Assembly: GCA_035438705.1 (NCBI GenBank)
Contig: DAORIV010000001.1
Coordinates: forward strand, 43,593 to 107,592
Origin: Parcubacteria group bacterium
Lineage (GTDB): Bacteria > Patescibacteriota > Minisyncoccia > Phycocordibacterales > DATDWN01
Direction: 5' to 3'
Length of the DNA stretch: 64,000 nt
In this document: piece after piece, positions 10,573-44,703 of the stretch
Position numbering within the stretch: the first letter of the stretch is position 1
Layout of the letters: the number at the start of each line of letters is the position of its first letter
Translations under genes and position numbers: made by a program
Notes under the pieces: generated by a model
What the model was told of the DNA's origin: nothing
Databases searched by the model: none
What the model saw: the letters and a program-made list of their open reading frames with translations, nothing else

Positions 10573-10601
10573 TTGACTATTTCATTATTTTTGTCTAGTA
10601 T
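10573..10601 (+). promoter_or_regulatory. promoter TTGACT-17-TAGTAT for tuf
   Basis: matches the TTGACA-17-TAGTAT element recurring at 15437 and 19316. Confidence 0.5.
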
Positions 10602-10721
10602 AGTAATGCCGTCGGTGTTTTTTTGCATACGGTCCATTTTTAAGTTCCCAAAATTCAGGTTTTCTCGAACACTGAGTTTTTGGAATTTCTCTCTGGTATT
10701 TATATACAGGAGGAAGACAAA

Positions 10722-10742
10722 ATGGCAATTATTAATTATTAA
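10722..10742 (+). other. mini-ORF MAIINY preceded by GGAGG (8-nt spacer) in the tuf leader
   Basis: the only clear SD-like motif seen in the window; 6-codon ORF ending 16 nt before the tuf ATG. Confidence 0.2.
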
Positions 10743-10758
10743 TTAATTTATAAATATT

Positions 10759-11955
10759 ATGGCAGATTTTGATAGATCAAAACCTCACATAAACGTGGGA
10801 ACAATTGGTCACGTTGACCATGGAAAGACAACATTAACAGCAGCTATCCTAAACACATTGGGTAGACAAGGAGCAGGCTACAGCGCAAAAGTTGTAGGTA
10901 TCGATGGTATCGATAAAGCTCCTGAAGAAAAAGCAAGAGGAATCACTATTGCTCTTTCTCACAACGAGTATGAGACACCTACAAGACACTATGCTCACGT
11001 AGATGCTCCAGGACACGCCGACTACATCAAGAACATGATTACTGGTGCCGCTCAAATGGATGGTGCCATCCTAGTGGTTGCTGCAACTGATGGAGTTATG
11101 CCACAAACAAGAGAACACGTTCTTTTGGCAAAACAAGTTGGAGTACCAAAACTTATCGTATTCCTAAACAAATGCGACATGGTACCTGATAAGGAGCTTA
11201 TTGATCTAGTTGAAGAGGAAGTTCGAGAGTTGCTTACAAAACAAGGTTTCGACGGAGCAGGAGCTCCAGTTATCAGAGGTTCAGGACTAAAAGCTCTTGA
11301 GTCAGCTAATAATGATGATGAATGGGCAAAGAAGGTTCTAGAGCTTGCAAACGCACTAGATACATACTTCCCAGTTCCAGAAAGAGATCTTGATAAACCA
11401 TTCCTAATGCCAGTTGAAGACATCTTCTCAATTGAAGGAAGAGGAACAGTGGTAACAGGAAGAATTGAAAGAGGAATTGTTAAGGTTGGAGAGGAAATTG
11501 AATGTGTTGGTCTACACGAGACACAAAAATACACAGTTACTGGTATTGAAATGTTCAATAAATCTCTACAACAAGGACAAGCTGGAGATAACGCAGGTAT
11601 CCTACTTAGAGGTGCTTCAAAGGATGGTGTTCACAGAGGACAAGTTCTTGCTAAGCCAAAATCTGTAACTCCTCACACAGAATTTACAGCTGAGGTGTAC
11701 ATCCTAAAGAAAGAGGAAGGAGGAAGACACACTCCATTCTTCTCTGGATACAAACCACAATTCTACATCAGAACAACAGACGTTACAGGAGATGTGACTC
11801 TAAATGAAGGAGTAGAAATGGTTATGCCAGGAGACCAAGTAACTTTCAAAGTTAAACTTGTTGCCCCAGTAGCTCTAGAAGACAACACTAAGTTTGCTAT
11901 TAGAGAGGGAGGTAAGACTGTGGGAGCGGGAGTTGTAACTAAAATTATAGCCTAA
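10759..11955 (+). CDS. tuf: elongation factor Tu
   Basis: [22 protein letters not shown] motifs; 398 aa. Confidence 0.97.
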
Positions 11956-29203: not shown

Positions 29204-29245
29204 TAATACCATAAAACCACCTCTACGGTGGTTTTATGGTATTAT
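29203..29245 (+). terminator. terminator with long stem (ATACCATAAAACCACC-TCTA-CGGTGGTTTTATGGTAT)
   Basis: core AAAACCACCTCTACGGTGGTTTTA repeats at 31587. Confidence 0.6.
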
Positions 29246-29274
29246 TAGAATATTAAAATTTAATTAATCAAAAT

Positions 29275-31581
29275 ATGAATTTTAGGATTCTCTTTTTATT
29301 TGCGTTCATACTTTTAACAACACCATTTCATGTTCAAGCTAAAGATTTGTACGTAGACCCAAATGGAAATGATGCTGTTTCTTATGCAAACAACTCAGCA
29401 TCGACTCCTTGGAGAACTATCGGTCGTGCGGCATGGGGAAGTACGAATAGAGAGGCAAGAAATGGTTCTGAGGCCGCTAGAGCAGGAGATATTGTTATAG
29501 TTAATGCTGGCACATATACAGGAGTCGGAACGAACTCTAGAAATGAAATTTTGTATTACCAAGAAAACAATGGTACAGCTGGGAATCCTATTACGTTCAG
29601 AGCAAATGGTACTGTAAATCTAACTCAGACAGGGGCGGGTGCAATGATAGGTTCATACAGAAGAAATTATATTGTATGGGATGGTTTCACAATAAATGAA
29701 GCAACTGCAGCATCTGTGGCTGATACTGGCCCTGTTACAGTGTATGAGTGTACTGGATGTGTATTGCAAAACTTAAATATAAATGGGAACGGAGATGGAA
29801 ACGGCAGAATGGACAACCACAATGGAATTAGAATTGAAGCATCAAATAATATAACTATAAAAAATAATAGAATTCAAAATGTTTACACAGATCACAATGT
29901 TTATAACGGTGCTTGTGTTATGACATACTCCAGTCAGGGTCTGACTATTGAAAACAACCATTTTTCTGAATGTGGTTCAGGTGTGTTTATAAAAGGAGGT
30001 CCGTTCGGATCTCAAATCACAAACACTTCATATATAAGATACAACCTTTTTGAAAATGTGTATGAAAATAGAGGAGGGGATCTTTCTGGCGGTTGTATAG
30101 CACTTCATGCTGGGGCACCATATTCTGCATCAGCACCAATTCTTATATATCAAAACATCATGAAAAATTGTGGTTGGGCAGGTGTGAGAATATGGGCTTT
30201 TGATAGCACTAATCCGCTAAACAATCCGACTAACGCAAAAATATTTAACAATGTAATAGATAATGCTACAAACGGTATTTGGGTTACAGGAGGCCTTTTA
30301 ACAAATGCTGGTCATCAGTTTTGGAATAACATTATTACAAATACTACTGGAGATGCTATAGCATTTGGAACAACCCCATCAGAAAATGTAAAGAGTCGTT
30401 TTGATTCTGAACACAACCTATTCTATAGCAATTCTAGTATTGCTCAAGATGCTCCAGGAACTAGATATACTTTGGCAACATGGAAAGCAACCGGCCAAGA
30501 TTCTGCTTCGCCTGAGTCTGTAAACGCAAATCCACTATTTATAGGTCCATCATCAAATAATTATAGACTTCAGTCTGGTTCACCAGCATCATCTCTGGGT
30601 AGAGCTATATATGGAATTGGTGGTGTAACTGGTGCTGTAATACCTGTTGGAGCATATATAACAGGCAGTGAGCTGATTGGAATATCTAATGGAGGCAATA
30701 TACAAAACTCTAATCCAATTACACCAGTAACACCAGCCCCGACAGCAGATATTAGGATAAATAATTCCTCAACGGGTGTAAGTGTTAATGTGGGAACTTC
30801 AGTCGTTATTTCTTGGACATCAACTAATGCTACTTCTTGTACTGTTTCACCTAGCTCATGGAGTGGAACAGCTGGGACACAAACTGTCACCCCTATTTCA
30901 AGTGCCACTTATACCATTTCTTGTTCTGGTGCGGGTGGTTCGGTAACTGATTCTGTTTCAGTGACCGTAAATCCTGTTGTTGTAGATCCGGTACCAGTTA
31001 CTCCAGTTGCAACATCTACAGAAGAGTGGGTATTTTGTTCGAATGAAAATGGAACATGTACTTTTTCTGGAACTAAGGATGTTAGATATGGAGCACAAAA
31101 TTCATATAATATAAGAACAGTAACTGGTTCAATAGGATGTAACAATGATGTTTTTGGAGACCCTATTTTAAATGTCGTAAAGCAATGTCAATATAAAAAT
31201 ATTGTCACAAATACTACACCCACAACTACAACTCCAACAACTCCGACTGCCACAACAACTACTAGTAATGATAATTTAATTAAGGTTGGAGATAGAATAA
31301 AAACAACAGCTACAATAAATGTAAGATCATCTGCTGGGGGAAGAATTGTGGGTACTCAAAGAACTGGTAGGGTAGGAAGTGTTACCACAGGACCTTCTAC
31401 AGTTAGTAGGAGGGATTGGTTTAGAGTTAATTTTGAATCAGGAGTAGATGGTTGGGTTGCGGTGGATTATATAACTAAAATTTCTACAACCACACTTTCT
31501 CAAGAAGAAATATTAAATCAAATTGCAAATCTGTTCATACTTATTAAACAACTTCAACAACAACTTAATAATCTAAGATAA
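29275..31581 (+). CDS. secreted multidomain protein: signal peptide, right-handed parallel beta-helix (pectate-lyase-like), PKD/Ig-like domain, T/P linker, SH3b-like domain, C-terminal amphipathic helix
   Basis: beta-helix repeats (NNRIQN, NNHFSE, IMKN...), WTSTNATSCTVS..YTISCSGAGGS Ig-like, WFRVNFESGVDGWV SH3b-like. Confidence 0.65.
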   Translation: MNFRILFLFAFILLTTPFHVQAKDLYVDPNGNDAVSYANNSASTPWRTIGRAAWGSTNREARNGSEAARAGDIVIVNAGTYTGVGTNSRNEILYYQENNGTAGNPITFRANGTVNLTQTGAGAMIGSYRRNYIVWDGFTINEATAASVADTGPVTVYECTGCVLQNLNINGNGDGNGRMDNHNGIRIEASNNITIKNNRIQNVYTDHNVYNGACVMTYSSQGLTIENNHFSECGSGVFIKGGPFGSQITNTSYIRYNLFENVYENRGGDLSGGCIALHAGAPYSASAPILIYQNIMKNCGWAGVRIWAFDSTNPLNNPTNAKIFNNVIDNATNGIWVTGGLLTNAGHQFWNNIITNTTGDAIAFGTTPSENVKSRFDSEHNLFYSNSSIAQDAPGTRYTLATWKATGQDSASPESVNANPLFIGPSSNNYRLQSGSPASSLGRAIYGIGGVTGAVIPVGAYITGSELIGISNGGNIQNSNPITPVTPAPTADIRINNSSTGVSVNVGTSVVISWTSTNATSCTVSPSSWSGTAGTQTVTPISSATYTISCSGAGGSVTDSVSVTVNPVVVDPVPVTPVATSTEEWVFCSNENGTCTFSGTKDVRYGAQNSYNIRTVTGSIGCNNDVFGDPILNVVKQCQYKNIVTNTTPTTTTPTTPTATTTTSNDNLIKVGDRIKTTATINVRSSAGGRIVGTQRTGRVGSVTTGPSTVSRRDWFRVNFESGVDGWVAVDYITKISTTTLSQEEILNQIANLFILIKQLQQQLNNLR

Positions 31582-31616
31582 AAAATAAAACCACCTCTAC
31601 GGTGGTTTTATTTTTG
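31581..31616. terminator. bidirectional terminator AAAACCACC-TCTA-CGGTGGTTTTATTTTT
   Basis: identical core to the 29215 terminator; flanked by convergent genes. Confidence 0.6.
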
Positions 31617-33867: not shown

Positions 33868-33942
33868 GTTGGGTAGGGTTATTCACCGAACTCTACTCCC
33901 ATTCAAAGGTAAACACAAGTATTTGATGATACAATTGTCTTT

Positions 33943-36900
33943 ATGAAAAAAGTATATTTTATTGTATTTATATTGGGAGCATTATTGTTTAATAATTCAG
34001 TTTATTCTGCAACTGCGACATTTCAACACGGGGTCAATGGTTATACGGGTGGAGAGGACTTAGAAATAAGTAGTGATAACCCAAATACCAATTATATTTC
34101 AGGAGGAAGTAATTATTCTGATAGAAGTGGACTGCGTTTCTGTGGTTCGAAGTGTAATAAAATACTCTTACGTTTTAATTCTCTTGGAATAACGGGCAAC
34201 ATAACAAATGTTAGGCTCGAACTAAAAGAAAGTGGAAGACAAGGTGGGGCAAGTAATATATATGCATATAAAATATCTAAAAATGACTGGGTAAATAGTC
34301 AAACTACTTGGAATACATATAAGACTGGAAGCAATTGGGCATCTGCAGGAGGTGATATAGGTTCAGTATTATCTACAATATCTGCACCTGGGACAAACAA
34401 TTGGGCTAGTTTTGATCTCGGTGCAAACTGGACTATTACAGAATTACAACAAAATGGTATATTAATTGATACTGATATACCCGGATGGAATTATGTCTGG
34501 TTTTATACGAATGAGGCAAGTAATGTAACTGATAGACCAAAACTTATTGTTACCTATGATGGAACAACTCCCACAACCCCAACAACTCCAGCTCCAACTG
34601 TTACAATTTCTGCTTCACCTACATCTATAACTTCAGGTGGAAGTTCAACACTAACTTGGTCTTCAACAAATGCGACATCTTGTACTGCAAGTGGTTCATG
34701 GACTGGAAGTAGAGGAACTTCAGGAACACAATCAACTGGAACACTTACAACAAACTCAACTTTTACACTTTCATGTAGTGGAGCTGGGGGCACAACGAAT
34801 CAGTCTGTCACAGTAATTATCAATTCAACAACACCAGTAACACCAACATCTGGAGGATTAGAAATAGATCTTTCTTATGTAAATCAAAGTTCTCCAGAGT
34901 TTATAAGATTTAAGTCTGTAGTAGATGCTGCGTTAGCTGGAAATCCTGATTATGGTTTTTCAGGCGAACATGCTGCTCTTATGTATAAAATTACTGGTGA
35001 TGTAAGGTATGCTGATTATGCCATCGGTTTTATTGAGAATTGCCAAAATTCAAGATACGCAGGTGCTAATTGTGGAGTACAAGGTGCTGAAGCTTTAATT
35101 TCTAATGGAAACAGACCTCCAGTTGCTGGGGATTCGTATCTTGAAGTTGGTGATATTATAGGTTCTCTTGCACTTGTATATGATTGGGCTGGGTCTAGAA
35201 TGACACAATCTCAGAAAACAAGATGGGCTAATTATGCAAACCAGACAATTTATAATGTTTGGAATCCGAATCAAGCTTCATGGGGAGGAGTATCTCATCC
35301 CTGGACAGGATGGTCTATAAATAATCCTGGAAATAACTATTATTACAGTTTCGTTCAAGCGACAATGTACTGGGCTCTTGCAACAAATGATACAACACTA
35401 CTTTCTTTTGTTAGAAATCAAAAATTACAACCTTTGGTAAATTATTTCAATCAAATCCCAGGTGGAGGAAGTCTTGAAGGAACTGGTTACGGAACTGCTC
35501 ATATGAGAATGTTTCATCTGTATCAGGTCTGGAAAGATTCAACAGGAGAGGATCTTGCAAATGCGAATAGCCACTTAACAGATAGTATAAGACTTTGGTT
35601 ACATCAAACAACACCAAATAGAGCTTATTATGCACCAATAGGAGATTTATCTAGAAGTTCTTTCCCAGATCTATTTGATTATCATAGAAGACTTGTGCTT
35701 GAAGCTCGTAATCTAACAAATAATAACTCTGCAAAAGATACTGCTTCATGGTGGTTAAATAATATTTCTGTGACACAAATGTCTAGACGTATTGATTCTC
35801 AATATGATTTATTACCGAAAGGAATAAATACTAGTGTTGCGCCAAATGAACCTCTGTCATATAGAGCAAGCGGGATAGGTAGAGTATTTGCTAGAACAGG
35901 TTGGGATACAAATGCATTATGGATGTCATTTGCTGCAGGAAAATATAATGAAAGTCACGCACATCAAGATCAAGGATCGTTTACTTTAGCAAACAATGCA
36001 TGGCTTGCTGTTACAAATAATATTTATACGAATAGTGGAATTGAGCAGTCAACCGATTACCACAATATTATCAGATTTGTTCAAAATGGATCAGTAGTCC
36101 CACAAAGAGAGGGTACTGAATCTGTGATGACAGTAAATCAACTTGGAACAAATGGTGAAGTAGATGTAACTGGAAATATCACTCCAGCTTATGGAGGAAG
36201 TTCAGCTGTCCAAAGTTGGGTTAGAAATATTAGATTTTCTGGAAGGAAACTCACAGTTAATGATGGCTTTTCTGTGGCAGCAGGGACTCAAGCAATATTT
36301 CAAATTCATGTACCTGTTCAACCTGTCGTGAGTGGAAACACAATAACAGCAGGTAATTTAAGAGTAAGAGTCCTTGTTCCAGCATCTCCTACGATAACAG
36401 TAGTAAATCAAGGTAGGTATAGAATTGATATAAGTGGTGGAACAAATCAATATGTTGTCGAACTTTCGGATCAAGCAATTACTGGTACGACGATAATACC
36501 AGCACCCCCAGTTTCAGGTAGTCCAACAACTCCCACAACCCCAACAACTCCAGCTCCAACTGTTACAATTTCTGCTTCACCTACATCTATAACTTCAGGT
36601 GGAAGTTCAACACTAACTTGGTCTTCAACAAATGCGACATCTTGTACTGCAAGTGGTTCATGGACTGGAAGTAGAGGAACTTCAGGAACATTGTCTGTAA
36701 CCCCCACAACAACATCAACATATACATTGTCTTGTACAGGCATAGGCGGAAGTATAAATCAATCTACTACAGTTACAGTGAATACTGTGATTCCGACAAC
36801 ACCAGCATCAACACTATTTACATCAGGTCAAAGAGTTCAAACAACAGCCAACCTAAATGTTAGAGCAACTGCTTCATCAAACGGAACACTACTAGGCACG

Positions 36901-38799
36901 CAAAGCACTAGTGCATTAGGAACAATCACAGGAACATCAGTATATGCAAACAGTATAAACTGGTGGAATGTTAACTATGATACTGGAGTAGATGGGTGGT
37001 CATCAGAGCAATTCTTGCAAAATTATGTTGCGCCTACTACTCCAACAACACCTACTGCTCCGACACAACCGACAACACCAAGTGGCACAGGTAGTACTTT
37101 CTACCCTCCAATAAATACTAGTGACACATCAGATGCTCCTCTAATTAACTTTGCTGAAACATGGGCAAGAAACTGGAACTTTGGTGGACACAGTGTAACT
37201 ACTACAAACTGGAGTGGTTGGTGGGATTACAGTGATACTTCTTACGAGCCTTGGTTGTTCGATAGAGCATCAGTTGGTTACTATTTATACAAGAGAACAA
37301 ATGATTCTAAATGGTTAGATAAGTTTATGTCTGACTTTGCTTGGTACAGAGCAAGAATAGATGCAAATGGATTCTTTACACCTACATCCTATGACGATAA
37401 CAAATATGCTTACGTTAGACCATTTCTTTTATATGAAAGACAAACAGGTGACAATCAATATAGAAGTCAAGCACTAAATATTTATAATATGTGGCTTAGA
37501 GAATTTTCTAACACATATAGTACTTCTATTGGACTTTGGACTGAAAGAGAAATTGGTTTAGCTCTTGAAGTTGCTGTAGATTATTACGATCTTACAGGAA
37601 GTCAGGCAGCGCTTACTCGTGCGAATGCACTTGTTACTCAGTGGTCAGTTATGTCGGCAAATAATGGAGGTGCACCACTTCACACTGTAACTCAACATGA
37701 AGGTGGTGGGGGATCTCAAATGATTACTAGTCCGTGGATGAGTGCACTTTATTTTCAAGCTGCATATAAACTTTATGCATTAACCGGTAATACAGAAGTG
37801 TTACAACAAATAAGTAGATATGCTGATTGGATGGAGCAATATGGTTACTTCTCTGGAAATACAGTGGGGGTTTCAAGTGTTCCTACTGCAGCATATTATT
37901 TAGCTGGCCCAAACGGTCCTTACACTGCCGAGACACCTAGTACAGGAGATTTTTCTCACTGTTTAGATATCTCAAATATGATTAAGTTCGCAGTGGTTGC
38001 AAAACAAGCTCTTGGAGAGTCAACTACAGCAGTTGCAAACAGACAAGCACAATTAAAAACATGCGCAGCATATTATTTTGCTGACGCAACAAGAACTACA
38101 ACAAGTCTTCCAAGATACAGAGTAAATCCGGCCAGATCATTTAACTGGTGGGTGCGTTCAACAGTTGAGTACAGAACATCTGGAACAAACTCAACTCCAA
38201 TACCTACTCCAACAGTAACACCAACAATACCACCCACCACAACAACTCCAACTACACCTACATCAGGAGGAGCAGGTGGTGGAAGTTCAGCACCAAGTAC
38301 ACCATCTACACCAGTAACACCTACAACACCGAGTGCAGGGTCAGGAGCTGGGGTAGGTGGAGGAGGCGGAGTGCAAACTCCTAGCTTACCAAGTACAGGT
38401 GGCGGAGGAACATCTTCCACACCTAAACCAGTTATCACTCGCAATTTGTCACCAGGAACAAAGGGAACTGATGTAACACAATTACAAAACTTCCTAATCT
38501 CTACAGGATATCTAGCATCAGGACTAAACACAGGATACTATGGTAATGCTACCAAAGAAGCTGTACAGAAGTATCAATGTGCCACACTTAAACTATGTTC
38601 AGGAACACAAACAACTAATGGTTACGGAGTAGTAGGAACAAAGACAAGAACAGCACTAACTACAACAAACACTCCTGTGCAAACCATAACCTCTACACTT
38701 ACTGCAGAACAAAGAGTTGCAATACAGAAACAGATTAGTGATTTACTTGTAGTTGTCGCACAACTTATGGAGCAACTAAAAGCAATGCAGGGGAACTAG
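33943..38799 (+). CDS. giant (1618 aa) secreted multidomain protein: signal peptide, two near-identical PKD/Ig-like modules, heparinase II/III-like polysaccharide-lyase region, SH3b-like domain, second alpha/alpha-toroid-like region, T/P/G-rich linkers, C-terminal peptidoglycan-binding domain and amphipathic helix
   Basis: ESHAHQDQGSFTL (heparinase II/III-like H-x-H-x-D-x-GSF), PG_binding_1-like LSPGTKGTDVTQLQNFLISTGYL...TKEAVQKYQ, repeated Ig-like WSSTNATSCTASGSW modules. Confidence 0.7.
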   Translation: MKKVYFIVFILGALLFNNSVYSATATFQHGVNGYTGGEDLEISSDNPNTNYISGGSNYSDRSGLRFCGSKCNKILLRFNSLGITGNITNVRLELKESGRQGGASNIYAYKISKNDWVNSQTTWNTYKTGSNWASAGGDIGSVLSTISAPGTNNWASFDLGANWTITELQQNGILIDTDIPGWNYVWFYTNEASNVTDRPKLIVTYDGTTPTTPTTPAPTVTISASPTSITSGGSSTLTWSSTNATSCTASGSWTGSRGTSGTQSTGTLTTNSTFTLSCSGAGGTTNQSVTVIINSTTPVTPTSGGLEIDLSYVNQSSPEFIRFKSVVDAALAGNPDYGFSGEHAALMYKITGDVRYADYAIGFIENCQNSRYAGANCGVQGAEALISNGNRPPVAGDSYLEVGDIIGSLALVYDWAGSRMTQSQKTRWANYANQTIYNVWNPNQASWGGVSHPWTGWSINNPGNNYYYSFVQATMYWALATNDTTLLSFVRNQKLQPLVNYFNQIPGGGSLEGTGYGTAHMRMFHLYQVWKDSTGEDLANANSHLTDSIRLWLHQTTPNRAYYAPIGDLSRSSFPDLFDYHRRLVLEARNLTNNNSAKDTASWWLNNISVTQMSRRIDSQYDLLPKGINTSVAPNEPLSYRASGIGRVFARTGWDTNALWMSFAAGKYNESHAHQDQGSFTLANNAWLAVTNNIYTNSGIEQSTDYHNIIRFVQNGSVVPQREGTESVMTVNQLGTNGEVDVTGNITPAYGGSSAVQSWVRNIRFSGRKLTVNDGFSVAAGTQAIFQIHVPVQPVVSGNTITAGNLRVRVLVPASPTITVVNQGRYRIDISGGTNQYVVELSDQAITGTTIIPAPPVSGSPTTPTTPTTPAPTVTISASPTSITSGGSSTLTWSSTNATSCTASGSWTGSRGTSGTLSVTPTTTSTYTLSCTGIGGSINQSTTVTVNTVIPTTPASTLFTSGQRVQTTANLNVRATASSNGTLLGTQSTSALGTITGTSVYANSINWWNVNYDTGVDGWSSEQFLQNYVAPTTPTTPTAPTQPTTPSGTGSTFYPPINTSDTSDAPLINFAETWARNWNFGGHSVTTTNWSGWWDYSDTSYEPWLFDRASVGYYLYKRTNDSKWLDKFMSDFAWYRARIDANGFFTPTSYDDNKYAYVRPFLLYERQTGDNQYRSQALNIYNMWLREFSNTYSTSIGLWTEREIGLALEVAVDYYDLTGSQAALTRANALVTQWSVMSANNGGAPLHTVTQHEGGGGSQMITSPWMSALYFQAAYKLYALTGNTEVLQQISRYADWMEQYGYFSGNTVGVSSVPTAAYYLAGPNGPYTAETPSTGDFSHCLDISNMIKFAVVAKQALGESTTAVANRQAQLKTCAAYYFADATRTTTSLPRYRVNPARSFNWWVRSTVEYRTSGTNSTPIPTPTVTPTIPPTTTTPTTPTSGGAGGGSSAPSTPSTPVTPTTPSAGSGAGVGGGGGVQTPSLPSTGGGGTSSTPKPVITRNLSPGTKGTDVTQLQNFLISTGYLASGLNTGYYGNATKEAVQKYQCATLKLCSGTQTTNGYGVVGTKTRTALTTTNTPVQTITSTLTAEQRVAIQKQISDLLVVVAQLMEQLKAMQGN
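34565..34730 (+). repeat. intragenic direct repeat copy 1 (~166 bp, PKD/Ig-like module)
   Basis: apparently identical to 36526..36691 (by reading, and by identical antisense ORF translations). Confidence 0.85.
36526..36691 (+). repeat. intragenic direct repeat copy 2 (~166 bp)
   Basis: apparently identical to 34565..34730. Confidence 0.85.
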
Positions 38800-38805
38800 A
38801 GAAAT

Positions 38806-38834
38806 AAAAAAACCGCCACATAGCGGTTTTTTTA
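38806..38834. terminator. bidirectional terminator AAACCGCCACATAGCGGTTT with A/T runs
   Basis: between the giant gene (+) and the malic enzyme gene (-). Confidence 0.55.
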
Positions 38835-39989
38835 TTTGCTAACCTTTTTTACTGCATTTGCTACAGCTTTAGCAACTCTTTTATCAAATGGACTTGGAAT
38901 AATGTAACTAGGGGATAGCTCCTTGTAAGTGACTAGTTTAGCTATAGCTAAAGCTGATGCTAACTTCATTTCGGTGGTTATTTGTTTTGCACCACTATCT
39001 AATGCGCCCCGGAAAATCCCAGGAAATACTAAAACATTATTTATTTGGTTTGGGTAATCACTTCTGCCTGTTCCAAAAACTTTTATTTTGGTTTTCTTTG
39101 CATTCTCCATACTTATCTCTGGATTAGGATTTGCCAAAGCAAGAACTATTGGGTCTTTGGCCATTTTTTCTATCCATTCAGGTTTTAAAATATCTGCAAC
39201 TGAAACACCAATAAAAACATCAGCATCTTCCAGCACTTGTTCCAGGTTTCCTTCCATTGTCTTACTATTTGTTTTATCAGCAATAGCTTTTTTGTATTTG
39301 TTTAAGTCAGTTCTTTTTCTATGTAAGGCACTTTTACTATCTAACATGATAATATTCTTTGCATTCACGCCATAATCAATAAGTAGATTACATATTGCTA
39401 TTGCTGCAGAACCAGCACCGTTAATTATAGTTTTAATACTGTTCTTATCTTTTTTAACGACTTTTAATGCGTTTATTAATGAAGCAAGAACCACAATTGC
39501 TGTGCCATGCTGATCGTCGTGCATTACAGGTATGTTCAATTCTTTTTTTAGTCGTTCTTCTATCTCAAAACATTTTGGCGCTGAAATATCCTCTAAATTT
39601 ATTCCACCAAATCCAACTGAGATTATTTTGATTGTTCTAATAATTTCTTCTGTATCTTGTGTGTCTAAACAAATAGGGTAGGCATCTATTCCAGCAAACT
39701 CTTTAAATAATATTGCCTTACCTTCCATAACAGGCAGAGCACCGTAAGGTCCAATATTTCCAAGTCCCAGAACTGATGACCCATCGGATATTACAGCCAC
39801 AGAGTTTGATTTAACTGTGAGTTTATTAGCTAAATCTTTATTTTTTTTTAAAACTCTTGATACTTCTGCTATCCCTGGTGTGTATGCAACAGATAGCTCG
39901 TATTTATTAGTTACTTTTAATTTAGAATAAGTACCAATTTTACCTTTAATTTTTTTATGCAATTCAAGTGATTTTTTAAAATAATTCAT
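38832..39989 (-). CDS. NAD(P)-dependent malic enzyme (short bacterial form)
   Basis: YTPGIAEV, ISDGSSVLGLGNIGPYGALPVMEGK malic-enzyme motifs; start at MNYFKK (ATG 39987-39989); upstream in-frame extension to 40055 runs into repeat/hairpin sequence. Confidence 0.8.
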   Translation of the reverse strand: MNYFKKSLELHKKIKGKIGTYSKLKVTNKYELSVAYTPGIAEVSRVLKKNKDLANKLTVKSNSVAVISDGSSVLGLGNIGPYGALPVMEGKAILFKEFAGIDAYPICLDTQDTEEIIRTIKIISVGFGGINLEDISAPKCFEIEERLKKELNIPVMHDDQHGTAIVVLASLINALKVVKKDKNSIKTIINGAGSAAIAICNLLIDYGVNAKNIIMLDSKSALHRKRTDLNKYKKAIADKTNSKTMEGNLEQVLEDADVFIGVSVADILKPEWIEKMAKDPIVLALANPNPEISMENAKKTKIKVFGTGRSDYPNQINNVLVFPGIFRGALDSGAKQITTEMKLASALAIAKLVTYKELSPSYIIPSPFDKRVAKAVANAVKKVSK

Positions 39990-39992
39990 ACT

Positions 39993-40003
39993 GTGTTGGC
40001 GGG
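39993..40003. repeat. 11-bp direct repeat TGTGTTGGCGG (copy of the tRNA-Ser 3-prime end/flank; second copy 43133..43143)
   Basis: region reads GGCCCGCCAACACA on the minus strand, versus GGCTCCGCCAACACA at the intact tRNA-Ser 3-prime end. Confidence 0.6.
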
Positions 40004-40074
40004 CCACTCGGGTTAAGTACCGTCCGAGTGAGACGTTGTAAGGATATTTTAACACATTTATTGACGGTCAATTG

Positions 40075-40088
40075 AAGCACTCGGGTCA
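40075..40088. repeat. 14-bp direct repeat AAGCACTCGGGTCA (second copy 43105..43118)
   Basis: exact 14-mer at both ends of the GC-rich islet. Confidence 0.6.
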
Positions 40089-40234
40089 GGGTCTCAGTAG
40101 ACACGATAGACACTATAAAAAGAAAATCTAAAACTTATTTTTCTGTATAAAATATGATAGTATTATTAAAACACTTACCATTTACAAAACCAATTTTTTA
40201 TGATTATATAACCTCGGAGGTTATTTGAAAAACT

Positions 40235-40960
40235 ATGGAAAAACCCAAGATCTTACTTATCCACGGCTGGAACTATACGAACTACACATCCTCAGGATGT
40301 AAGAGTGCGTGGTCAAACCGATTAAAATTTGTGGAAGCATTGTCTCAACATTTCAATGTTGTGACTATCAACCTGCCTGGGTTTTGTGGTCAGGCCGATC
40401 CAGAAAAACCTTGGACTATTGATGATTATGTTGACCATGTCAACACGGTTGTCAGAGCAGAGAACCCGAACTTTGTCCTCGGATATTCTTTTGGAGGAGC
40501 GATTGTCCTTCGTTGGAAAAGCAGAACAAAAGATACAGTGACTGGAGTGATTCTTGTTTCTCCTGCAATTATTCGCAGGTACGAGAATAAGGATCTAAGT
40601 CTTGTTCAGGAGATTCTCAAGAAGGTTCTCCCAAACAGACTGATTTCTACTCTCAGGGATCTGTATCTAACACAGTTCGTGAAGAATCCGTATTACTCAA
40701 AAGCAACGAAGGTGATGCGCGAAACGTATCGCAATATCGTTGCTGTTGATTTGCGGAAAGACCTACAAGAACTTACCCAGCCAATCACGCTTATCTATGG
40801 TGAATTCGACAGTGCAACACCTGTCGAATTGGTCAAAGAGGTTCTTTCAAGCTCAAAAACGAAACACAAACTGAATGTGATTCCTGCTGGTGGGCATGAC
40901 ATTGCAAATTCTCACACAGCGGAGCTCATTTCCCTGATCACAAGAGAAATTGGAGGATAG
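40235..40960 (+). CDS. alpha/beta-hydrolase fold protein (esterase/lipase-like); GC-rich (~46%) relative to the genome
   Basis: LLIHGW ... GYSFGG nucleophile elbow, His near C-terminus. Confidence 0.65.
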   Translation: MEKPKILLIHGWNYTNYTSSGCKSAWSNRLKFVEALSQHFNVVTINLPGFCGQADPEKPWTIDDYVDHVNTVVRAENPNFVLGYSFGGAIVLRWKSRTKDTVTGVILVSPAIIRRYENKDLSLVQEILKKVLPNRLISTLRDLYLTQFVKNPYYSKATKVMRETYRNIVAVDLRKDLQELTQPITLIYGEFDSATPVELVKEVLSSSKTKHKLNVIPAGGHDIANSHTAELISLITREIGG

Positions 40961-40962
40961 AA

Positions 40963-42336
40963 ATGGTATTTGACCTTGAGACCTTAAGAAGAATCCTTCC
41001 GGATTCAAGATTTGTAAATTTGAGTGGTAATGAGATCTTCACAGTTCTCAATATCGCTCATCTAAAGCAGTTTGAAGCTACATCTTCAGAAGACAGAATT
41101 CTGTATTTCTGTGTGTATGAAGATGATCCTAATCTTATGGGTTGGTACAACAATCCATTTGACCGATCTCTCAACATTCAGAAAATCAGGACTGACGAGA
41201 GAGTTACTTTCGTTGTTGACCAGAGAGTCCCTGAAGACCGAGTTCATCGTATACGACACATTCGCGTCGGTAATATCTACGATGCGATTGATTGTATTCG
41301 CCGACACGTCCTATCCCAAATCAATCCTCAGGTGATTGGTGTGACAGGAAGTGTTGGAAAAACCACAGGAGTGGCTCTTATCCAAAGCATTTTGGAGAAG
41401 GGGTTGAGTTGCGGAAGGATATATTCAAAACGCCTCACTCCATTGACCTTGTCTTCGTGGCTGGTCAACTTTCTAGATTCATCACACCGTGTGTTGGCTC
41501 TAGAATATTCAATGTACCGAAAGGATCACATTGATAGACTGACTGACATCCTAACTCCTGATATTGGTGTATTCCTGAATGTGAAAAGGATGCATCTGGG
41601 AGTACAAGGGATAAACAGCTTGCAAGATATCGTTGAAGGCAAAGAGGCTCTGGTGCGTAAATCAAAGTTGGGAGTACTCAATATTGATGAGCCACTAGTG
41701 TCTCAACTCAAGAGGCATGGAGATCTGACTTTCTCACTTAGAGACAAGCAAGCAGATGCCTTCATATTCACTGATGGTGATGAAGCAGTGCTTATCTTGA
41801 ATAGCACGGGTCATGAAATCAGATTTGTGCCATACATCAAGACAAGTCTGTTTTACTACCAAGCGTCTGTTGCTGGTCTCATTGGAGTACAGTTCGGAAT
41901 TTCTCCTGAACTTATCACTAATGCTCTTGAGGATTTCAGACCAGCAGAAAACAGGATCAATTGGATTGATGTTAAGGGCCACCAAGTGCTGTTTGATGGT
42001 GATGTAACTGTAAGTGGCAGAATGGCCTCTCTATCAGAACATCACTACACAACCAGTATTTTGATGATCCATAGTTTTGACTTTGGTGAGGAAAATATCG
42101 ACTTGCAAGTCGATGATTTTTCTCAGGTTTTCTCAACATTTTCTGAAGTTAGAGTTCTAGACACTGAAGAAAATAGGACAATTATTTCAAAGTATTCATT
42201 GAGAAATATTATCTTTGTAACAAAAGATGACTTCCTCTCTGGACTTTCGAAATTTGAGTTCAAAGTTCTTCACTTCGGGACATACTTCAGGAAGTATAAG
42301 GACCTGAGTTTCCTCATGCAATTCATAGCCGTCTGA
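40963..42336 (+). CDS. Mur ligase family protein (MurF/MurE-like ATP-dependent amide ligase) with N-terminal extension; GC-rich
   Basis: GVTGSVGKTT Mur-ligase P-loop, central and C-terminal Mur-ligase-like regions. Confidence 0.6.
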   Translation: MVFDLETLRRILPDSRFVNLSGNEIFTVLNIAHLKQFEATSSEDRILYFCVYEDDPNLMGWYNNPFDRSLNIQKIRTDERVTFVVDQRVPEDRVHRIRHIRVGNIYDAIDCIRRHVLSQINPQVIGVTGSVGKTTGVALIQSILEKGLSCGRIYSKRLTPLTLSSWLVNFLDSSHRVLALEYSMYRKDHIDRLTDILTPDIGVFLNVKRMHLGVQGINSLQDIVEGKEALVRKSKLGVLNIDEPLVSQLKRHGDLTFSLRDKQADAFIFTDGDEAVLILNSTGHEIRFVPYIKTSLFYYQASVAGLIGVQFGISPELITNALEDFRPAENRINWIDVKGHQVLFDGDVTVSGRMASLSEHHYTTSILMIHSFDFGEENIDLQVDDFSQVFSTFSEVRVLDTEENRTIISKYSLRNIIFVTKDDFLSGLSKFEFKVLHFGTYFRKYKDLSFLMQFIAV

Positions 42337-42353
42337 GTAAAATCAGACGGCTA
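42328..42353 (+). terminator. hairpin AGCCGTCTGA-GTAAAA-TCAGACGGCT overlapping the stop of the Mur-ligase-like gene
   Basis: 10-bp perfect stem; weak T-run. Confidence 0.4.
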
Positions 42354-42490
42354 TTCGTTTAAATTATTATATTAATTTTTTATACAAATCAGCTTTCAAA
42401 AACTTATGTTTCTTAAAAGATTTACATCTTTTACAAACCAGAATCACATTACTCATATTAGAGAGTACAAGGATAAAACACTCGCACTAA

Positions 42491-43090
42491 TTAACAAATG
42501 ATATAATTTATAAAAGTAGAAAATATTATATATAAAGTGCCTAATGTAAAAAGAGATATGATCCATTTGTGATATTTAATAAATGAAGCTCTGTTTTTTA
42601 TTATATTAATATCCAAATGGTTTGTGCCCAGAGTATTATCCATTTTAAATGTTTCTTGAACATACTCCGACATGCTTGTAACCCGATCGTTAGATGGTTT
42701 ATTTTTATCTAAAATTATGGACTTGGCACCGTTTGATATTATCCAGGATATTTCAGCACTAGATATTTTTTTATTTTCTGATTCAAGATGATAGTTTAGA
42801 AAAACATACGACAATACAATATTTACTAAAAGGACAACAAATCCTATAAGTAAAACTACAACATTTATGTTGAGTTTATCTACATCAAGCAACATTAAAG
42901 AAAATGGTGCTATAACCCCAGAAACTACTGCAATATCTTTAATTTGTTCTCTATAAGAATCAATCAATATTTTGATATTTGAATTAAGTAATATCCTTCT
43001 TGAAATATCATCTTCTTCTAGATTTGCGGAAAAATTAGAGATCAAATCCTGTATTTCAGCTTCTAGTTTTTTTATATTTTCATCTTGCAT
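42491..43090 (-). CDS. hypothetical membrane protein with N-terminal coiled-coil segment
   Basis: 199 aa, 3-4 TM helices, AT-rich like host. Confidence 0.45.
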   Translation of the reverse strand: MQDENIKKLEAEIQDLISNFSANLEEDDISRRILLNSNIKILIDSYREQIKDIAVVSGVIAPFSLMLLDVDKLNINVVVLLIGFVVLLVNIVLSYVFLNYHLESENKKISSAEISWIISNGAKSIILDKNKPSNDRVTSMSEYVQETFKMDNTLGTNHLDINIIKNRASFIKYHKWIISLFTLGTLYIIFSTFINYIIC

Positions 43091-43137
43091 GTTAGTTAAA
43101 ACTAAAGCACTCGGGTCACACCGATACTAAATTGTGT

Positions 43138-43230
43138 TGGCGGAGCCGGATGGATTCGAACCATCGGTACCTTATTAAAGGGTACACCTCTTTAGCAAAG
43201 AGGCACGTTAGACCACTCTGACACGGCTCC
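43138..43230 (-). tRNA. tRNA-Ser (anticodon GCU), class II with long variable arm, CCA encoded
   Basis: GGAGCCG acceptor, anticodon loop TTGCTAA, T-arm GATGGTTCGAATCCATC, 3-prime CGGCTCCGCCA. Confidence 0.85.
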
Positions 43231-43257
43231 AATAAAATAACATTCAACATGCTTTCT

Positions 43258-43386
43258 TTTTAGCAAAGAGGCACGTTAGGTCAGGAATAGTTTTTTTTAA
43301 AAACTTTCCCGACCCGGACTCGCGTCTAGACGCTCCGTCTCTAAATTACTATCCCATAGTAATTTAGCACTCTGACACGGCTCCAA
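43258..43386 (-). repeat. partial duplicate of the tRNA-Ser 5-prime half (positions ~1-38) interrupted in the D-loop by an ~80-bp insert made of two perfect palindromes
   Basis: GGAGCCGTGTCAGAGTG...[CTAAATTACTAT-GGG-ATAGTAATTTAG ; GCGTCTAGACGC]...CTAACGTGCCTCTTTGCTAAA matches the intact tRNA, then diverges. Confidence 0.7.
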
Positions 43387-43444
43387 TTAATTTCAAGGTT
43401 AGCATATTTTATGTATTAGGTATATTATAGCGCACGGAGGACTT

Positions 43445-43894
43445 ATGCCAGATAGACACGGTTACACCGTTGAAGAATTTGCTCTTTTACTTTCTGTTGG
43501 TGAGTGTACTGTCTACAGATGGATTTACGAGGACACTATCCTGTACTTTAATTCTCGCATACCAAAGAAATATGCAAATAAAATAATAAAGCTTTGGTCA
43601 AAAACATGTACACCTTCTGAATTTTCAAGGCACCTTGGAGTCAGTCCTTCCAAGGTAGACATACTGATTAAAAAAGGAAAACTTCGAACTATTCGAGTGG
43701 TCAGAAAACCTCGGGTTTTTCTAAGAGATCTGGAGAAAATCAAAAATGATAAAAATCTGGTACAAAAGACAGATGTAATTAACAAAAATAAAATAGGTTT
43801 TGCTAGATATTCAAAAAAAAGAAAAACAGCAATTGCTCTATTGGGCTGTTATTCTCCAAATAGAAAAAAGCGGGGTAAAAGAGATATATTTTAA
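43445..43894 (+). CDS. small DNA-binding protein with two HTH (excisionase/MerR-like HTH_17) motifs
   Basis: YTVEEFALLLSVGECTVYRWI and SEFSRHLGVSPSKVDILIKKGKL helix-turn-helix signatures. Confidence 0.5.
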   Translation: MPDRHGYTVEEFALLLSVGECTVYRWIYEDTILYFNSRIPKKYANKIIKLWSKTCTPSEFSRHLGVSPSKVDILIKKGKLRTIRVVRKPRVFLRDLEKIKNDKNLVQKTDVINKNKIGFARYSKKRKTAIALLGCYSPNRKKRGKRDIF

Positions 43895-43896
43895 TT

Positions 43897-43929
43897 AAGG
43901 CGCCCGTCATTACTACGGGCGCCTGTTCT
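43897..43929 (+). terminator. terminator GGCGCCCGT-CATTACT-ACGGGCGCC + T-rich tail
   Basis: 9-bp GC-rich stem after the HTH gene. Confidence 0.55.
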
Positions 43930-43968
43930 ATTACATTTTTTAAAAAAATTCTGTATACTGGAAAAATT

Positions 43969-44055
43969 GGATAGGTGGATGAGTGGTTTAAATCAACGGT
44001 TTACTAAACCGTCGTAGGGTAAAACCTACCGAGAGTTCGAATCTCTCCCTATCCG
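43969..44055 (+). tRNA. class II tRNA (Ser-like, long variable arm) with anticodon loop UUACUAA, apparent anticodon ACU
   Basis: acceptor GGATAGG/CCTATCC, D-stem GAT/ATC, anticodon stem ACGGT/ACCGT, variable arm GTAGG..CCTAC, T-arm GAGAGTTCGAATCTCTC, discriminator G. Confidence 0.6.
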
Positions 44056-44058
44056 CAT

Positions 44059-44703
44059 TTAATGTGCAATTGTAAAGCCAATTACATCTTTTGCCCCCTT
44101 ACCAATCAGTATTTTTCTAGCTTCAGTTAGTGTGGTGCCAGTTGTAACAACATCATCAATCAGGAATATATATTTACCAAAAACCCTCTCATCAGCATCA
44201 AAACAATCAGATAAGTTTTTTACTCGTTCTTCTTTTGAGTTGCTATGACTTTGTTTTGGAGTCTCTTTCACTTTGCCAAGCCATTGTGGTGCATAAATAA
44301 GTAGTCTCTGGGTATCACAATCTATTATTGATTTGGCAATTAATTCACTTTGGTTATATCCACGTTGGACTCTTGATTCTGTGGTTATGGGAATCGGTAT
44401 TAACAAAAATTCAGCATTATTGTTGAATAATGATATATCAGAAATTACAGAAATAATTTCTTCGAATATAATTTTTCCAATAGTTTCTAATGGTGAGACA
44501 TTTTCTTTGTATTTCAATTCCCAAATTATTGCTTTTACTCTAGTGTCTTTATATTGAAATAAGGGGGTTATCCATTCTATATCGGTTACTTTTTGAGATT
44601 TGGGTAATGAATATATAGTTTTTTCGTCGAGCTTCTTCACTATTTCATAATTAGATCTTGGTGGAATGATAAAATCCAAGATACTTTTTCCGATCTCAAT
44701 CAT
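44059..44703 (-). CDS. comFC: ComF-family phosphoribosyltransferase-domain protein
   Basis: C-terminal PRTase motif FLIDDVVTTGTT; likely start at MIEIGKS. Confidence 0.7.
   Translation of the reverse strand: MIEIGKSILDFIIPPRSNYEIVKKLDEKTIYSLPKSQKVTDIEWITPLFQYKDTRVKAIIWELKYKENVSPLETIGKIIFEEIISVISDISLFNNNAEFLLIPIPITTESRVQRGYNQSELIAKSIIDCDTQRLLIYAPQWLGKVKETPKQSHSNSKEERVKNLSDCFDADERVFGKYIFLIDDVVTTGTTLTEARKILIGKGAKDVIGFTIAH

Follow-up and report, generated by a model that had tools for sequence, protein, structure and literature searches.

The window analysed here is a 64-kb stretch of a Patescibacterial (Candidate Phyla Radiation, CPR) genome, with a GC content of 35.3% over its whole length, and our subject is a segment of about 3.1 kb, the island, that lies in it between a malic enzyme gene and a gene for tRNA-Ser(GCU). 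The order of genes is a 1618-amino-acid (aa) surface protein, the malic enzyme (minus strand), the island, tRNA-Ser(GCU) (minus strand), a partial tRNA copy, a gene for a helix-turn-helix (HTH) protein of the excisionase family, tRNA-Ser(ACU), a ComF-like gene and pilus genes. An earlier reading of the letters, below called the original prediction, had described a decayed tRNA-targeted element bounded by att-like direct repeats. The features are listed below, with similarities given to L187 (labels of this form are our own handles for the sequences compared), a distantly related Patescibacterium whose backbone, in the pilus genes, is approximately 67% identical to the window.

38832..39989, minus strand: malic enzyme gene of the host flank (Pfam malic and Malic_M domains).
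39992..40002: distal att-like 11-mer TGTGTTGGCGG, read on the minus strand as CCGCCAACACA inside GGCCCGCCAACACA.
39997..40125, minus strand: distal end of the element, with a hairpin at 40005-40030, TGTGTTAAAAT and the left subterminal repeat; 86% identical to L187 19876-20003 (E 1.6e-36).
40075..40088: subterminal repeat AAGCACTCGGGTCA (14-mer), left copy, in the distal arm.
40235..40960, plus strand: alpha/beta-hydrolase, 241 aa, cytoplasmic (Pfam Abhydrolase_1 62.7 bits, Hydrolase_4 58.7 bits).
40963..42336, plus strand: MurF-like three-domain ATP-dependent ligase, 457 aa, with a Mur_ligase_M domain; begins 2 nt past the hydrolase stop.
42328..42351, plus strand: hairpin GCCGTCTGA-N6-TCAGACGGC over the ligase stop codon, read from the sequence.
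42370..42462, minus strand: HNH endonuclease pseudogene fragment, last 31 codons (tblastn to residues 114-144 of the L187 HNH protein, 58%, E 1e-8).
42462..42500, plus strand: 3′ stub of a recombinase gene, last ∼13 codons (DNA homology into the L187 recombinase open reading frame, ORF).
42491..43090, minus strand: 199-aa predicted membrane protein, the tRNA-proximal backbone gene; no Pfam family; 90% aa identity in L187.
43105..43118: subterminal repeat AAGCACTCGGGTCA, right copy, in the tRNA-proximal arm; kept at the same place in L187 as GTGACCCGAGTAC.
43133..43143: proximal att-like 11-mer TGTGTTGGCGG, made of the tRNA 3′ end CCGCCA and ACACA.
43138..43230, minus strand: intact tRNA-Ser(GCU) (anticodon GCT), the predicted integration target (ARAGORN; Rfam tRNA 46.3 bits).

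The sequence features named in the original prediction all lie where it had put them or at most 1 nt away: the 11-bp repeat, which it began at 39993, is found at 39992-40002 and 43133-43143, and the degenerate copy of the tRNA end stands at the left end next to its 7-bp-stem hairpin. The two cargo genes were also named correctly as an alpha/beta hydrolase and a member of the Mur ligase family, by the Pfam domains Abhydrolase_1 and Mur_ligase_M.

What kind of segment this is can be read from the comparison with L187. The 199-aa ORF has very few homologues, and the one in L187 sits directly after that genome's own tRNA-Ser(GCU). Three blocks of the window align collinearly with this locus (blastn): 42462-43199, which spans the stretch from the tRNA end over the proximal arm and the 199-aa gene to the recombinase gene's 3′ end, matches L187 10629-9896 at 85.5%, 42370-42458 matches at 78.7%, and 39997-40125 is the distal end listed above. 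The proximal junction, with ...CTCCGCCA on one side and ACACAATTTAGTATCGG... on the other, is common to both, and the distal homology stops exactly after ...GGCCCGCCA (...CCCGAGTGGCCCGCCA), beyond which the window runs through ACACAGT into the ATG of the malic enzyme gene and L187 into unrelated DNA. Between these limits the element measures approximately 10.05 kb in L187 and 3.14 kb in the window.

In L187 the 199-aa gene is directly followed by a gene for a 439-aa large serine recombinase (ORF 10590-11909; Resolvase 71.7, Recombinase 43.5 and Zn_ribbon_recom 37.3 bits, all above the Pfam cut-offs), and downstream of it by three DNA methyltransferase genes, a PvuII-like endonuclease, an HNH gene and four small genes; its 10 kb hold no tyrosine integrase. 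Positions 10630-17305 of L187 (∼6.7 kb) have no counterpart in the window, where the HNH stub abuts the recombinase stub. Because only the 3′ stubs of these two genes are kept, we conclude that about 6.7 kb was deleted. The distal cargo of L187 is replaced in the window by a 2.15-kb cassette of two genes with foreign codon composition. No recombinase gene is called in the window between 36.6 and 52.3 kb (from the gene table for contig L001, which is identical), as the original prediction had it for an integrase. The window thus carries only the 3′ stub of a gene that is intact in L187, and its copy of the element is therefore decayed and non-autonomous.

We considered the 199-aa ORF as a native gene, given its host-like GC content at third codon positions (GC3), but dropped this, because its product is 90% identical in L187 against 67% for the backbone and because the protein family lies directly after tRNAs in three genomes. 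The third of these is L188 (3759-4488), where a 35%-identical homologue begins 27 nt after tRNA-Glu(CTC) and is followed by approximately 3.5 kb of small unannotated ORFs up to the dcw cluster; a clear att repeat was not found at this tRNA-Glu locus. A 200-aa gene after the hydrolase-ligase pair in locus L011, the contig of the P0007 ligase, was tried as a further homologue and rejected (E 0.95).

The ends of the island tell the same story at the level of single nucleotides. It starts at the CCA end of tRNA-Ser(GCU), immediately 3′ of the intact gene, which is 100% identical to the copies in two of the relatives described below (L177 and L179). A direct repeat of the tRNA end is present at the far boundary (CCGCCAACACA at 39992 and 43133), where the minus strand reads GGCCCGCCAACACA, a degenerate copy of the tRNA end; the repeat is short. 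CCGCCA is the last sequence common to the window and the L187 element, and ACACA is host flank that matches by chance, so the duplicated piece of the tRNA is CCGCCA only, plus ACACA in the window genome. The left-end hairpin has 7-bp arms (40005-40011 and 40024-40030) around a 12-nt loop and is only partly conserved in L187; the left-end region as a whole folds no better than shuffled sequences (z +0.5 to +0.75), and a scan of viral_contigs gave no match to the hairpin. Apart from the tRNAs, Rfam lists nothing over 39900-44100 (at the gathering threshold and at E ≤ 5) and nothing at five related loci (at the gathering threshold).

The 14-mer AAGCACTCGGGTCA occurs twice in the 64 kb, and the 9-mer ACCCGAGTG three times against an expectation of 0.14, all three at the island ends. 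The original prediction gave the 14-bp repeat its correct coordinates but an att-like role, which does not stand: both copies and the third ACCCGAGTG copy keep their positions in the L187 element, and for this reason the repeat is an internal subterminal (arm) repeat of the element family rather than an att core or target duplication. With this we also dropped the idea that it marks a 3.03-kb insertion nested in an older mini-element. An AT-rich direct repeat of 16/18 nt (TCTAAAACTTATTTTTCT and TCAAAAACTTATGTTTCT, at 40127-40144 and 42396-42413) lies near both edges of the stretch that stands in place of the L187 cargo and may be due to chance.

To judge the repeats statistically, we used 2000 dinucleotide shuffles with the ends defined as 250 nt each. 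The 11-mer alone is unremarkable, and the region holds several further exact repeats of 11-13 nt. A repeat of at least 14 nt anywhere appears in 4.6% of the shuffles and a single repeat of at least 11 nt joining both ends in 2.5%, but two end-joining repeats appear in 0 of 2000. Nor do the repeats reflect tRNA paralogy, as both ends are 85-86% identical to the ends of the L187 element over a backbone of ∼67%.

Related genomes show what occupies the same place when the island does not. The exact ligase protein is found on 17 contigs of identical layout, and homologues of the malic enzyme were used as the route to informative relatives: a scan of genome_contigs with this enzyme gave one useful relative, L017 (labelled Candidatus Saccharibacteria), and a scan of metagenome_contigs gave matches of at most 59% identity, the window's own contigs not among them. 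The closest relative, L177, is of the same species, with flanks 99.3-99.6% identical at the nucleotide level and an adenylate kinase 100% identical. It lacks window positions 39991-43139, and likewise 29238-31583, 33921-38844 and 43232-43367; its slot, from the tRNA pair to the malic enzyme gene, holds two giant genes for Big_7 surface proteins. Other giant genes fill the slot in L180 and L017, and in L179 it is only 155 nt long and includes the apparent 3′ end of a giant gene, such that the content differs in every relative and consists mostly of giant Big_7/fn3 proteins. The homology breakpoints are the same in L177, L179, L180 and L017, namely 39990 (the malic enzyme ATG) and 43140 (the tRNA 3′ end), and in all four of these island-free relatives the tRNA gene ends in ...CTCCGCA, with the CCA not encoded. 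The comparison of the locus between relatives thus bears out the original prediction, as the same genes are not found at this place in any of the four.

These relatives also raise a possible, though not a likely, alternative: that the locus is a hypervariable surface-protein locus reshuffled by homologous recombination, into which the already decayed island arrived together with its flanks from another Patescibacterial strain. The changing slot content just described is what one would expect from it, and two further strain-specific giants lie close by, at 29275-31581 (768 aa) and 33943-38799 (1618 aa, with a PG_binding_1 domain), both missing in L177. Further, identity to L177 falls from the 99.3-99.6% of the flanks to 95.9% in the type II secretion system genes, 92.9% in the malic enzyme gene and 87.5% in the HTH gene beside the slot, a decay from which we conclude that homologous recombination acted here too. 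However, this accounts for the arrival of the segment and not for its nature: L187, only ∼67% identical in its backbone, has at this same tRNA a recombinase-bearing element that agrees with the island in both ends, the 199-aa gene and the stubs. Reshuffling by homologous recombination and an origin as an integrative element are in fact compatible.

The base composition separates the island into two parts. The original prediction put 40235-42336 at 45-48% GC against ∼33% for the genome, which overstates the contrast: the actual values are 41.6% (hydrolase 43.1%, ligase 40.8%; the top 400-nt window reaches 44.5%) against 35.3%, and the claimed 12-15 points shrink to about 6. Similarly, only the cassette is GC-rich and not the whole 3.1-kb islet, since about 2.1 kb is enriched and the 199-aa ORF (42491-43090) has 26.5% GC and a GC3 of 0.20, which is host-like in the window. 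The suggested check of codon usage does single out both cargo genes, with a GC3 of 0.43 for the hydrolase and 0.40 for the ligase against a mean of 0.235 (standard deviation 0.047) over 46 window ORFs. The 199-aa gene (27% GC) is atypical against the 40% GC backbone of L187. The island is a mosaic of element backbone, to which its two ends and the 199-aa gene belong, and the hydrolase-ligase cassette, to which the foreign GC is confined.

These numbers also bear on the simplest explanation, that the genes are native, the repeats fortuitous and the higher GC a result of amino-acid composition or expression level. The neighbouring 1618-aa gene illustrates that composition can have such an effect, as its GC of 39% is raised at codon position 2 only (GC2 0.54, GC3 0.19), and the 11-mer by itself is no longer than other chance repeats nearby. 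But in the cargo genes the excess sits in GC3, and the EF-Tu and ribosomal-protein-region ORFs have a GC3 of just 0.19-0.27. Together with the absence of the genes from L177, the joint repeat test and the homology of both ends to the L187 element, this leaves native genes scarcely credible.

The positions from approximately 39997 to 43137 are thus very probably what is left, in 3.1 kb and without a recombinase, of a site-specific integrative element whose point of entry was the CCA end of tRNA-Ser(GCU). The original prediction of a decayed island that brought in a foreign hydrolase and ligase is supported by the absence of the genes from L177, by GC3 and by the L187 element. The lost enzyme was most likely a large serine recombinase. 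In the proposed course of events, this recombinase would have catalysed the integration, with the crossover within or beside CCGCCA, and a later deletion would have left just 7 nt between the distal element end and the malic enzyme ATG. Having lost its recombinase, the island would now be fixed, or at best mobilisable in trans.

Several points weigh against this interpretation. Neither an excised form, nor an empty site with matching flanks, nor a circular junction was seen, and the strain may have received the already decayed island plus flanks by homologous recombination instead of by integration in situ. At the protein level the recombinase stub gives a weak signal (33 aa, 42%, E 0.17). The att identity is short, 6 nt with L187 and 11 nt here, and the exact crossover cannot be placed, although so small an identity would suit the minimal att sites of large-serine-recombinase elements. 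That the serine recombinase of L187 acts on these ends we infer only from adjacency, and although large serine recombinases usually bind inverted half-sites, the conserved ACCCGAGTG motifs that flank the junction are direct repeats. Finally, the ligase stays under the MurF cut-off and its C-terminal domain has no MurF sequence match.

The hydrolase-ligase pair is the part of the island that travels. The two genes, 2 nt apart, are a translationally coupled pair, and the conserved cassette, delimited by blastn to L014 as 40195-42350, comprises a promoter region, both genes and the hairpin at 42328-42351. This hairpin is likely a terminator that ends the conserved cassette; a terminator scan did not list it. 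The pair is found again in other Patescibacteria. In every context examined the two genes are adjacent, in otherwise unrelated neighbourhoods, and the GC3 of the pair stays at 0.35-0.48 where that of the host varies from 0.25 to 0.62, with a mean of 0.235 in the window. In L014 and L015 the pair and a GrpB gene lie just 3′ of a tRNA-Asn, with a 15-nt exact repeat of the tRNA 3′ end 3243 nt away, and in L014 and L016 the pair forms part of a 3.24-kb island flanked by this 15-nt exact repeat. The L016 copy of this island is 97.7% identical; the sequence to its left differs, with the breakpoint at the repeat. Upstream of this copy, at 6700-7000 of L016, the tRNA-Asn 3′ end is repeated several times in degenerate form, each time followed by a hairpin-rich unit of approximately 100-190 nt, a stack that looks like repeated integration at a single site. 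The L014 and window islands have nothing in common except the cassette; adenylate kinase was not used as a yardstick for the distance between the two hosts, as the L014 match is only 20% identical and probably not orthologous. In L182 a tyrosine integrase (Phage_integrase) gene follows the ligase gene, and in L013, L183 and L184 the pair stands in a chromosomal-looking context, with host-like composition in two of the three. The ligase family is rare, with 52 cluster representatives at E ≤ 1e-30 among 1.84 billion, and no relatives of the ligase were found in viral contigs, phage records or plasmid records. Capture of the pair by at least two unrelated tRNA islands, along with an integrase-adjacent copy, suggests a selectable, envelope-related function.

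This distribution also speaks for a different origin, in which the island would be the remnant of a classic tyrosine-integrase island that duplicated the 3′ part of its tRNA. A homologous pair does reside in the tRNA-Asn island of L014 and L016, with its 15-nt exact repeat, and adjoins the Phage_integrase gene in L182; at the locus itself there is an HTH gene of the excisionase family beyond the tRNA, and relatives carry mini-insertions with tRNA duplications of 17-19 nt. However, the duplication here is just 6-11 nt, the only intact homologue of the backbone, in L187, has a large serine recombinase directly after its 199-aa gene, and the island of L014 shares with that of the window only the cassette. 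We therefore regard a tyrosine-integrase island as improbable. The tRNA-targeted integrative element of the original prediction is kept as a decayed island, its lost enzyme being more likely a large serine recombinase than a classic tyrosine integrase.

Domain content gives a first idea of what the two enzymes may do. The hydrolase belongs to the alpha/beta-hydrolase superfamily (Abhydrolase_1 62.7 bits, cut-off 25.8), and its triad Ser85-Asp192-His221 (GYS85FGG, D192, H221) is invariant in an alignment with five homologues, but it reaches no specific subfamily (for example BioH, 62 against a cut-off of 207). Its sequence matches in the PDB are generic esterases and lipases, and a structure model from its single sequence reached a pLDDT of just 43.5, too low for use. 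In the ligase all three Mur-ligase domains are present, with an intact ATP-binding P-loop, which is invariant along with other core residues, and the protein is structurally closest to MurF. Against the MurF family TIGR01143 it scores 92.7 bits, below the cut-off of 288.6, and its sequence profile matches PDB MurF over residues 65-345 only. It does not qualify as MurT either, with 12.7 bits and E 0.044 for that model and a partner that is Abhydrolase_1/Hydrolase_4 and not a GatD glutaminase. Neither protein has a signal peptide. With low confidence, we propose by analogy a cytoplasmic pair that edits a nucleotide-linked muropeptide precursor of the UDP-MurNAc-peptide type, in which the ligase would attach an amino acid or dipeptide, and trimming or release of a group would fall to the hydrolase. 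Modification of the cell wall or a polymer by such a pair, as also imagined in the original prediction, would be compatible with the MurF-like fold.

The insertion may also have changed the expression of its neighbour. Homology of the malic enzyme gene with all relatives stops at its ATG at 39989, which is the true start; a GTG at 40055 was considered and rejected. Only 7 nt separate this ATG from the element end, and it has no Shine-Dalgarno motif. The sole promoter-like sequence upstream is an extended −10-like TGTGTTAAAAT on the minus strand at 40046-40056, oriented toward the malic enzyme gene and owned by the element; in the relatives a promoter of their own stands 10-25 nt before the ATG. 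We dropped the possibility that TGTGTTAAAAT is ancestral host sequence because it is conserved in L187 beside different host DNA. The malic enzyme gene is thus probably transcribed now from this outward-facing promoter of the element, which is our reading of the sequence and was not listed by a consensus promoter scan.

On the other side of the tRNA the window holds a 137-bp insertion (43231-43367) that is missing in L177 and amounts to a partial copy of the 5′ half of tRNA-Ser(GCU), with its D-loop split by a 27-nt hairpin and a structured core of 62 nt (43276-43340). The layout of this core is GACGGAGCG, a hairpin, CGCGAGTC and a long hairpin. It recurs in L179 (9495-9585) and L180 (4690-4780), where a duplicated 3′ part of a tRNA next to tRNA-Ser(ACU) holds it in its T-loop, and in L014 (6895-7005) beside the tRNA-Asn att repeat. 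The core folds strongly (z −4.8 and −4.1), with compensatory changes in the long hairpin, and matched nothing in Rfam or viral_contigs. An att arm, a mini-element and an RNA are candidates for its nature.

Between the two tRNA-Ser genes, at 43445-43894 (plus strand), lies the gene for a 149-aa protein with two HTH_17 stretches and an excisionase-family domain above the cut-off; L177 (86% aa identity) and L180 (76%) have it, L179 and L017 do not. The second tRNA-Ser (43969-44056, plus strand), which adjoins tRNA-Ser(GCT), has the anticodon ACT (A34) and is kept in L017, L177, L179 and L180; to our knowledge, A34 tRNAs other than tRNA-Arg are unusual in bacteria. The whole block from tRNA-Ser(ACT) through the HTH gene to tRNA-Ser(GCT), at 43138-44056 in the window and 2876-3638 in L177, is inverted in L177, with breakpoints exactly at both tRNA 3′ ends (...CCGCA), which suggests recombinase action on both ends.

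The island as such is a kind of object already known, an ordinary genomic island that is unusually cleanly documented. Because an intact relative, deletion scars and an island-free genome of the same species are all available, one can trace directly how an active element became fixed cargo. It adds another case of streamlined, host-dependent CPR bacteria gaining and losing genes at tRNA-linked hot spots, and it carries a rare, always-paired module in organisms with poorly understood cell-wall metabolism. A broader reading of the data goes further in three respects, and we put it forward only tentatively, thinking it rather unlikely that all three hold jointly. First, there would be a Patescibacterial family of large-serine-recombinase elements with the tRNA CCA end as attB, seen twice at tRNA-Ser(GCU) and possibly at tRNA-Glu; its hallmarks would be a conserved membrane-protein gene next to the tRNA, ACCCGAGTG subterminal motifs in direct orientation and a promoter that faces outward. 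Second, the cassette would be a selected, exchangeable module for editing cell-wall precursors that moves across unrelated classes of tRNA-targeting elements while keeping its own composition. Third, the 62-nt core would be an undescribed structured mini-element within duplicated tRNA fragments at the locus. A large serine recombinase that perhaps targets the CCA end of a tRNA could be of interest for recombinase discovery.

The cargo has two known counterparts. With MurF the ligase shares the GxxGKT P-loop and an NxxxxHL-type motif, but it is encoded outside the dcw cluster, is always paired with the alpha/beta-hydrolase and belongs to a rare family. The pair recalls MurT/GatD in that two genes form a unit, one for a member of the Mur ligase family and the other for a small hydrolytic partner that has a nucleophile-His catalytic pair; here, however, the partner is a Ser-Asp-His alpha/beta-hydrolase and not a glutamine amidotransferase, and the gene order is reversed.

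For the island itself, non-autonomous derivatives of tRNA-linked islands exist, such as the cis-mobilisable elements (CIMEs) of Streptococcus thermophilus. As in these and in tRNA islands generally, the segment in the window follows the tRNA 3′ end directly, the tRNA end is part of its short direct repeat, close relatives differ in whether they have it, and it carries foreign cargo but no recombination genes. It differs in the very small size of its repeat (6-11 nt), in its streamlined Patescibacterial host and in that its nearest intact relative has a large serine recombinase and not a tyrosine integrase. The tycheposons of Prochlorococcus are variable tRNA-adjacent islands with modular cargo in a streamlined genome, their sites gather partial tRNA copies and degenerate remnants, and a minority use a large serine recombinase (bioRxiv 10.1101/2020.12.28.424599). 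The likeness, in genome streamlining, tRNA-adjacent variable islands, remnants and modular cargo, is ecological and architectural only: the phylum is a different one, and neither the window island nor the 10 kb of L187 contains a replication module (primase/helicase). SCCmec, finally, is a large-serine-recombinase element that inserts at the 3′ end of rlmH. Its target differs from the tRNA CCA end proposed here, the subterminal motifs of our element are direct rather than inverted, and the role of the recombinase is predicted; but the L187 enzyme, with its Resolvase, Recombinase and zinc-ribbon domains, resembles that of SCCmec, and both elements combine insertion at the very 3′ end of a conserved gene, which stays intact, with a very short att identity and with cargo and decay that differ between copies.

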